Shown piece by piece: positions 30,160 through 30,430 of a DNA stretch of 64,000 nucleotides. This DNA comes from Acutalibacteraceae bacterium. GTDB lineage: Bacteria; Bacillota; Clostridia; Oscillospirales; Acutalibacteraceae. Under the pieces are notes generated by a model. The model searched no databases and had not been told where the DNA came from. It was given only the letters and a program-made list of their open reading frames with translations. The stretch spans positions 247 to 64,246 of the forward strand of contig JAZSNB010000118.1 in assembly GCA_045536195.1 (NCBI GenBank), given 5' to 3'. Numbering within the stretch: the stretch's first letter is position 1; each line of letters opens with the position of its first letter. Made by a program: the position numbers and the translations under genes.

Positions 30160-30430
30160 CTTGTAACACAAAAAGTCCCCGAAACAAAAGTTTCAGGGAC
30201 GATAATATACCGCGGTACCACCCATATTGCTGATAAACAGCCGCTCTGAGGCTCTGACAAGCCTTTGGTCATGATAACGGAACCTGCCGCAATTCCCTAT
30301 AAGCCTTATTACGAAGGTGTTGAGAAACCGTGCTCAGATACGAGACAAACTGAAAAACCTGCTACCGCCTTTCAGCACACGGCGGCTCTCTGAAAACATA
30401 AATTAATCAGTCTTAATATCATCACTGCAT
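30160..30430 (-). promoter_or_regulatory. T-box riboswitch leader, Leu (CUC) specifier
   Basis: On the minus strand, Stem I has the K-turn GCAGUGAUGAUA ... UAUCUGAGCA, an AGAGAG bay and the specifier CUC followed by G (30342-30344). The T-box sequence is AAUAUGGGUGGUACCGCGG (30210-30228). The terminator is GUCCCUGAAAC-uuuu-GUUUCGGGGAC followed by UUUUUGUG. Confidence 0.85.

Follow-up and report, generated by a model that had tools for sequence, protein, structure and literature searches.

A T-box leader specific for tRNA-Leu upstream of a LeuA-like gene in an Acutalibacteraceae bacterium, with a most likely incidental, species-private hairpin behind its terminator

The DNA analysed in this study, referred to as the window, is a 64,000-nt stretch of contig JAZSNB010000118.1 in the Acutalibacteraceae bacterium assembly GCA_045536195.1. 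The leader under study and the elements that belong to it lie on the minus strand, and according to promoter and terminator scans the leader is bounded by a promoter at 30475-30447 and by the terminator of the upstream gene at 30545-30507. The promoter consists of TTGACT, a 17-nt spacer and TATACT; a consensus scan gives 10 of 12 matches, and the -10 box aligns across the orthologous leaders. The segment 30507-30545, between the upstream gene (30560-31495) and this promoter, is an 18-bp AT-rich hairpin that scores as a terminator on both strands. A T-box leader comprising Stem I, the Stem II region, Stem III, the T-box sequence and the antiterminator occupies 30192-30434, as delimited by the Rfam model RF00230. 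The intrinsic terminator (30165-30200), which was located by the terminator scan at -19 kcal/mol (z -5.0), consists of an 11-bp stem with a UUUU loop and the U-run UUUUUGUGUU; the stem, GUCCCUGAAAC/UUUU/GUUUCGGGGAC, extends from 30200 to 30175 and the U-run from 30174 to 30165. Downstream of the terminator is a distal element, AAGUCCCCGGAAACGAAAA (30145-30162), which was recognised by folding as a complement of the terminator loop and 3′ arm (30189-30173) and is polymorphic at 30158 and 30160. The orthologue alignment A1 defines a 39-nt spacer insertion at 30120-30158, which is common only to the window and one other leader, L044. The ribosome-binding site AAAGGAG (30110-30116) is located 8 nt upstream of the ATG at 30101-30099, and AAGGAG is aligned in all orthologues. 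The regulated gene (28698-30101, minus strand) encodes a 467-aa LeuA-like protein that contains an HMGL-like domain and a LeuA allosteric domain and is without the catalytic residues.

According to its sequence and predicted structure, the leader is a canonical transcription-attenuating T-box riboswitch and an ordinary member of the known family, for which tRNA-dependent antitermination is predicted. A sequence-only reading had proposed a T-box here, and the covariance model RF00230 agrees, matching 30192-30434 over its full length (model positions 1-219) with an E-value of 3.5e-20 and 90.0 bits. The same reading had placed Stem I, the T-box sequence, the terminator and the U-run, and every one of these elements was found at the proposed position on the minus strand. 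For comparison we used 22 distinct orthologous leaders from congeneric genomes and GTDB species representatives (Acutalibacteraceae, Oscillospiraceae and Clostridia MAGs), mostly from ruminant guts, which together with the window give 23 leaders. Direct reading identifies the 5′ strand at the base of Stem I, with its GA (K-turn) motif, GCAGUGAUGAUA (30417-30428), which is invariant in the 23 leaders bar one position. Stem I then reads GCAGUGAUGAUA ... GUCUC-G-UAUC-UGAGC, with the specifier codon, the purine and the closing helix conserved in the 23 orthologous leaders; direct reading and the orthologue alignment place the specifier CUC at 30344-30342 and the conserved purine G at 30341. The distal part of Stem I, the AG bulge and distal loop that form the tRNA elbow platform, is represented by CAGAGAGCCGCC...GGCGG, which aligns with the AGAGA and distal loop of the model at high posterior, and the distal helix covaries (pair 79:93 is CG in 11 leaders, UA in 7 and UG in 4).

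The 3′ half of the leader is equally regular. Direct reading and the RF00230 alignment place the T-box sequence AAUAUGGGUGGUACCGCGG at 30210-30228, with the bulge UGGU that would pair with the tRNA end ACCA; its GGGUGGUACCGCG segment is invariant in the orthologue alignment. In the covariance-model alignment, the antiterminator helix (30196-30223) is formed by GGG...CCC and GCGGU/AUCGU, which flank a 7-nt bulge. The 3′ strand of the antiterminator, AUCGUCCC, overlaps the 5′ arm of the terminator, GUCCCUGAAAC, such that the two structures are mutually exclusive, and the U-run is present. Moreover, RNAalifold on the 23 orthologous leaders found 12 pairs with compensatory changes in the helices of Stem I, Stem II and Stem III; the program wrongly joins the base of Stem I to the 3′ strand of the antiterminator (columns 38-42/281-285), and the helix-level covariation counts alone were used.

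When the whole window was scanned with Rfam at gathering thresholds, the sole entry was a glmS ribozyme/riboswitch with a shortened P4 region (61308-61442, minus strand, 65.4 bits, E 8.6e-13), and the leader T-box was absent from the list. The reason is that the leader scores 3 bits below the gathering score of RF00230, which is 93 bits, and it is therefore detected only with E-value thresholds. The genome, a 2.83-Mb MAG that is 96.9% complete, contains 11 T-boxes, 6 of which score less than 93 bits, including the alaS and trpB leaders. Therefore, the shortfall is a property of the lineage and not a sign of a false match. The sub-threshold T-boxes of the genome (within the set L001-L011) have E-values of 1e-18 to 1e-20 and cognate genes downstream, and standard annotation would miss them.

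The specifier is CUC in 22 of the 23 leaders and CUU, which is also a leucine codon, in the remaining one (L065), whereas the two bases 5′ of the triplet vary. The position of the specifier was read by a rule in which the triplet is followed by a purine, a helix of 4-6 bp and then the 3′ GAG-containing K-turn strand (here UGAGC). We calibrated this rule with four further leaders from this genome, and it returned UUC for pheS, AAC for asnS, GCC for alaS and UGG for trpB, all four of which are correct. [quoted passage not shown] Because of the leucine codons in all 23 leaders, the calibrated rule, the tRNA-Leu(GAG) ends and the ilv-leu precedent, we consider the predicted leucine assignment to be well supported, and the specifier originally proposed at 30342-30344 holds.

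The sequence-only reading had also taken the LeuA-like gene downstream as support for leucine, and this argument stands only in part. The HMGL-like domain and the LeuA allosteric domain (LeuA_dimer) are indeed present in the product of the gene (30101-28698). However, the protein falls far under the cut-off of every NCBIfam LeuA model (at best 266 bits against a cut-off of 532), and in the alignment to Listeria LeuA (3ewb) it has TMLNLDS in place of TLRDGEQ and CVDVSD in place of SHCHDD. With the RDGEQ motif and the HxH metal ligands absent and the score below the cut-off, it does not qualify as a 2-isopropylmalate synthase, and it is predicted to be catalytically dead. The operon is likewise not a leu operon. 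The LeuA-like gene shares one base with the start of an 832-aa gene (26200-28698), to which it is translationally coupled, and the product of the latter is a xylose-isomerase-like TIM barrel fused to an acyl-CoA ligase; the leader therefore belongs to an acyl-CoA-ligase operon. Across Clostridia, the pair of LeuA-like and 832-aa ligase genes is kept in about 70 of 80 species-level loci (L044-L123), with conservation of 58-97% for the ligase and 41-91% for the LeuA-like protein, and IlvE, a gene for a 218-aa protein and VorB often adjoin it.

A second T-box is present in the window at 25888-26129 (minus strand). It scores 90.6 bits against RF00230, which again falls short of the gathering score; the positional rule assigns it the specifier AUC-G (Ile), and it precedes genes for a 755-aa MbcS-like acyl-CoA synthetase, the 218-aa protein, VorB with its partner subunits, and IlvE. 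No other LeuA-family gene was found in the 96.9%-complete MAG. The only aconitase-family gene recovered by a Pfam Aconitase scan of the genome is an aconitate hydratase (PRK07229, 992 bits), and the only Iso_dh-family gene recovered by the corresponding Pfam Iso_dh scan is an ICDH-like dehydrogenase. Therefore, no leuC/leuD and no clear leuB were found in this MAG. These aconitate hydratase and ICDH-like dehydrogenase genes, at L127 (C49:27000-40000), lie next to Rex and have no T-box.

The downstream hairpin is the unusual part of the locus. The sequence-only reading had noted that the 3′ arm of the terminator can pair with a downstream GUCCCC (30160-30155), and this pairing is indeed predicted, although the helix is larger than was described. 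It joins 30189-30173 (the terminator loop, the 3′ arm and the first two U) with 30162-30145; it has 17 pairs and a single bulged G, and its energy of -21.1 kcal/mol compares with about -19 (-18.8 to -19) for the terminator. A partition-function calculation on the full-length leader gives the 3′ arm an occupancy of ~0.73 in the distal helix and ~0.27 in the terminator, and the best fold of a 90-nt RNA contains the antiterminator and the distal hairpin together (-27.0 kcal/mol). When reverse-complemented, the distal element matches the 3′ arm side at 17 of 19 positions, TTTT(C)GTTT(C)CGGGGACTT, and because it places a C opposite a G that forms a wobble pair in the terminator, the distal element is a better complement of the 3′ arm than the terminator's own 5′ arm. 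None of 200 shuffles folded as well as the distal hairpin, and in a spacer-only control 78 of 5000 dinucleotide shuffles of the 48-nt spacer did so. In a duplex-only test, the distal helix gave a p of about 0.003, which is the best value among 85 T-box leaders and is therefore borderline after multiple testing. We consider a chance origin of the complementarity to be only moderately excluded. A second or plus-strand terminator was rejected as an identity for the hairpin: the scan finds the T-box terminator only, and the distal helix is followed by GAAAAAAG, with no U-run. When the spacer was compared with the whole genome by short BLAST as a possible dispersed repeat or mobile element, only chance 12-14-mers were returned.

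Among the orthologues, the distal helix is not conserved. For 21 of the 22 orthologues, 10-25 nt lead from the U-run to AAGGAG and the start codon, and because the ribosome site directly follows the U-run, no space is left for a distal arm. The sole orthologue that shares the 39-nt insertion (30158-30120) is L044, from the closest (sister) species, whose LeuA-like protein is 91% identical. The 3′ half of its insertion is alignable, and the segment that matches GUCCCCGG reads AUACAGCC. By our count on alignment A1, L044 keeps 7 of the 17 distal pairs, which are non-contiguous, and the segment folds at -6.4 vs -21.1 kcal/mol; the spacer is thus missing from 21 orthologues and the complementarity from the remaining one. 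Among these sequences, the distal complementarity is private to this species, and it resembles a 3′ arm that was copied locally in inverted orientation.

Variation within the species points in the same direction. Near-identical sequence occurs in 20 public gut, faecal and rumen metagenome runs (X1-X20), and the contigs of four of these (X1, X3, X7 and X11), each from a different study, were compared over 29950-30480 (531 nt). Single contigs of X1, X3 and X7 span the whole interval, and X11 covers the hairpin with a shorter piece. In the 270 nt of the T-box and terminator, no variants were seen in the four metagenomes (the X11 contigs leave part of the T-box uncovered), and four of the six variant sites of the 531 nt fall in the 48-nt spacer (hypergeometric P 0.0008). 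Two of the variants lie within the distal helix. G>A at plus-strand 30158 (C30158U in the RNA) produces a G-U wobble and a helix of -18.2 kcal/mol, and C>G at plus-strand 30160 (G30160C in the RNA), which the X7 haplotype carries, produces a C-C mismatch and -16.4 kcal/mol. On refolding, the distal helix reaches a predicted occupancy of 0.73 for the window, 0.55 for X1/X11 and 0.00 for both X3 and X7, such that in two of the four sampled natural populations (X3 and X7) the variants abolish the predicted competition with the terminator. No compensatory change that would restore the distal helix was seen across the four natural metagenome samples. The pairing is thus not maintained within the species, with occupancy falling from 0.55-0.73 to 0.00, and the 3′ arm engaged by the distal element is constrained by the terminator in any case. 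Exact-pattern scans of metagenome contigs gave no matches, either to long-spacer leaders or to the junction of terminator and spacer.

All four other assemblies have C at 30127 and one T fewer in the run at 30142 (an A-run in the RNA), so that two differences, or errors, within the spacer are private to the MAG of the window. Although such differences might suggest that the hairpin itself is an assembly or consensus artefact of a metagenome-assembled genome, the distal element lies mid-contig in the assemblies of four runs from four different studies. Therefore, the hairpin is not an assembly artefact, and the probability that we assign to such an origin is negligible.

A wider scan for helices that trap the 3′ arm covered 73-85 distinct T-box leaders. 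In L084 and L086, from related species with a more distant LeuA-like gene, a 12-bp distal helix, CAGUC-UCAGGGC/GCUCUGG-GCUG, re-uses the terminator 3′ arm ~60 nt upstream of the LeuA-like start and is independent of the helix in the window. In L008, which belongs to the same genome, pairing is between the U-run and an A-run that lies downstream of it. Among 19 tyrS leaders from the family's other genera, about half (L157, L158, L163, L171, L172, L177, L179, L183 and L186) have a C-rich element right behind the U-run that is able to pair with the G-rich 3′ arm; the pairing registers differ, with GCAGAGGG/CCUUCUGC in L158 as an example. In a shuffle test, 15 of 85 leaders had p<=0.05, compared with 12 of 85 for a reversed-arm decoy, and the longest exact complement was at least 6 nt in 12 leaders, compared with 8 for a parallel-orientation decoy. 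Because the decoys nearly match the real excess, the signal is largely that of a C-run after a G-rich arm and not of oriented pairing, and a general enrichment of 3′-arm complements behind T-box terminators was rejected. It is improbable that 3′-arm-trapping helices just behind the U-run, with the window leader, L084/L086, roughly one in two tyrS leaders of the family, L131, L150 and L179 as candidates, represent a recurrent, gene-specific addition to the T-box platform of Acutalibacteraceae that would keep read-through transcripts out of the terminator fold and thereby tune mRNA stability or translation.

As expected from the T-box family, Stem I would read the anticodon of tRNA-Leu(GAG) through CUC, and the UGGU bulge would pair with the uncharged ACCA end and stabilise the antiterminator (30223-30196). 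Without that pairing, the terminator (30200-30175) and the U-run would form and transcription would stop. A T-box specific for tRNA-Leu(GAG) would in this way control the operon headed by the LeuA-like gene. At an intrinsic terminator, release happens while the polymerase sits on the U-run. The distal arm (30162-30145) begins 3 nt past the end of the U-run (30174-30165) and spans the positions 3-20 nt beyond it; it would need a further ~15 nt to clear the exit channel and would be made about 30 nt after the release site. Because the distal arm would emerge only after the release site has been passed, it should, by established knowledge of termination, be unable to compete at the termination decision. 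The earlier idea that the distal helix modulates termination efficiency is therefore mechanistically unlikely.

We believe that the locus is most likely a leucine T-box with an incidental, near-neutral, species-private quasi-palindrome that has no regulatory role, because the distal arm is made after the decision and the helix is maintained neither in the orthologues nor in the populations. The regulatory function once proposed for the third helix is not supported, in view of its absence from 21 of 22 orthologues, its lack of preservation in L044 and its disruption in two of four populations. At most, the distal helix may alter the resting fold of the 5′ UTR in the read-through mRNA. Three observations run counter to this incidental reading: the stability of the helix equals that of the terminator, which it is predicted to out-compete at equilibrium in the window sequence; it has the strongest arm-to-downstream complementarity among the 85 T-box leaders tested; and similar arrangements occur in a few other leaders of the family (L084/L086, several tyrS leaders, L131, L150 and L179), which would be compatible with a sporadic functional role.

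The main rival is a lineage-specific lock that acts after read-through, which we regard as unlikely. In such a model, the distal element would trap the free 3′ arm so that the terminator cannot re-form, and the persisting antiterminator and distal hairpin would alter RNase processing, 5′-end stability or tRNA release. The best fold of the 90-nt RNA (-27.0 kcal/mol), the occupancy of 0.73 in the window sequence and the sporadic recurrence of comparable arrangements in other leaders are consistent with a lock, and according to PMC7913692 terminators re-form in read-through T-box transcripts and decide mRNA stability. It is because the structure of the read-through region can set T-box mRNA stability that the lock is retained as the main rival. 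However, the helix is missing from 21 of 22 orthologues and is unpreserved in the sister species, variants in two of four natural populations abolish the competition, the spacer varies more than any other part of the region, and the 85 leaders show no orientation-specific enrichment (complements of at least 6 nt in 12 real vs 8 decoy cases). Dual control of transcription and translation is far less probable still. Here the C-rich distal element would serve as an anti-Shine-Dalgarno sequence that the 3′ arm neutralises only when the antiterminator has formed, such that leaky read-through transcripts would be translationally silent. By eye, the distal element does complement the ribosome site in some tyrS leaders (e.g., UCCCCU vs AGGGGA in L157), but in the window GUCCCCGG is not complementary to AAAGGAG, and whole-region folds with the terminator formed show the ribosome site unpaired to the distal element. 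We hold it to be just as improbable that the near-perfect inverted repeat acts in the DNA, where its 14-bp arms and 10-bp spacer would form the operator of a dimeric regulator or a cruciform, considering that one arm is the T-box terminator, present in every orthologue without the second arm, that the second arm is polymorphic, and that the genome holds no other copy.

Quasi-palindromes and inverted duplications that arise by template switching at hairpins are a general mutational class. The distal element resembles this class in being a 17/19 reverse complement of the adjacent 3′ arm within a fast-evolving spacer, and this sequence pattern suggests a possible template-switch-type origin.

The closest known system is the ilv-leu T-box leader of B. 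subtilis, which according to PMC2494555 is likewise transcriptional, with a CUC leucine specifier, a terminator/antiterminator platform and genes for branched-chain amino acid supply. In contrast, the first gene here encodes a LeuA-like protein that is predicted to be dead, followed by the fusion of a TIM barrel and an acyl-CoA ligase with no ilv-leu biosynthetic genes, and this species has a private extra helix behind the terminator. T-box leaders are also found upstream of leuA, for example in Geobacter and Pelobacter, where the genes are annotated as true 2-isopropylmalate synthases (PMC2494555). These leaders, like the present one, directly precede a LeuA-family gene, whereas the protein here scores 266 vs 532 bits and is without the metal ligands. 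For the distal helix, the relevant comparison is with leaders in which structure of the terminator region in the read-through RNA sets mRNA stability, which is the only plausible route for this helix to matter. According to PMC7913692, the thrS terminator of B. subtilis is a 5′ stabiliser in the read-through RNA (Condon et al. 1996) and the terminator of the Staphylococcus aureus met leader is cleaved by RNase III. In both cases it is the terminator itself that acts, and this was tested experimentally, whereas the third helix described here is predicted, would remove the terminator and is not conserved.

This locus is a cautionary case, in which a helix that equals the terminator in stability, and is expected from the predictions to win against it, nevertheless fails every comparative and population test of function. 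A lock after read-through, if true, would add a post-decision layer to T-box platforms, although the present evidence is not in favour of it. For annotation, the analysis indicates that at the Rfam gathering score more than half of this lineage's T-boxes go undetected. For the biology of the organism, it confirms tRNA-Leu as the predicted signal that controls the first operon of a locus which, in rumen and gut Clostridia, is a candidate for the synthesis of branched-chain amino acids from fermentation acids.
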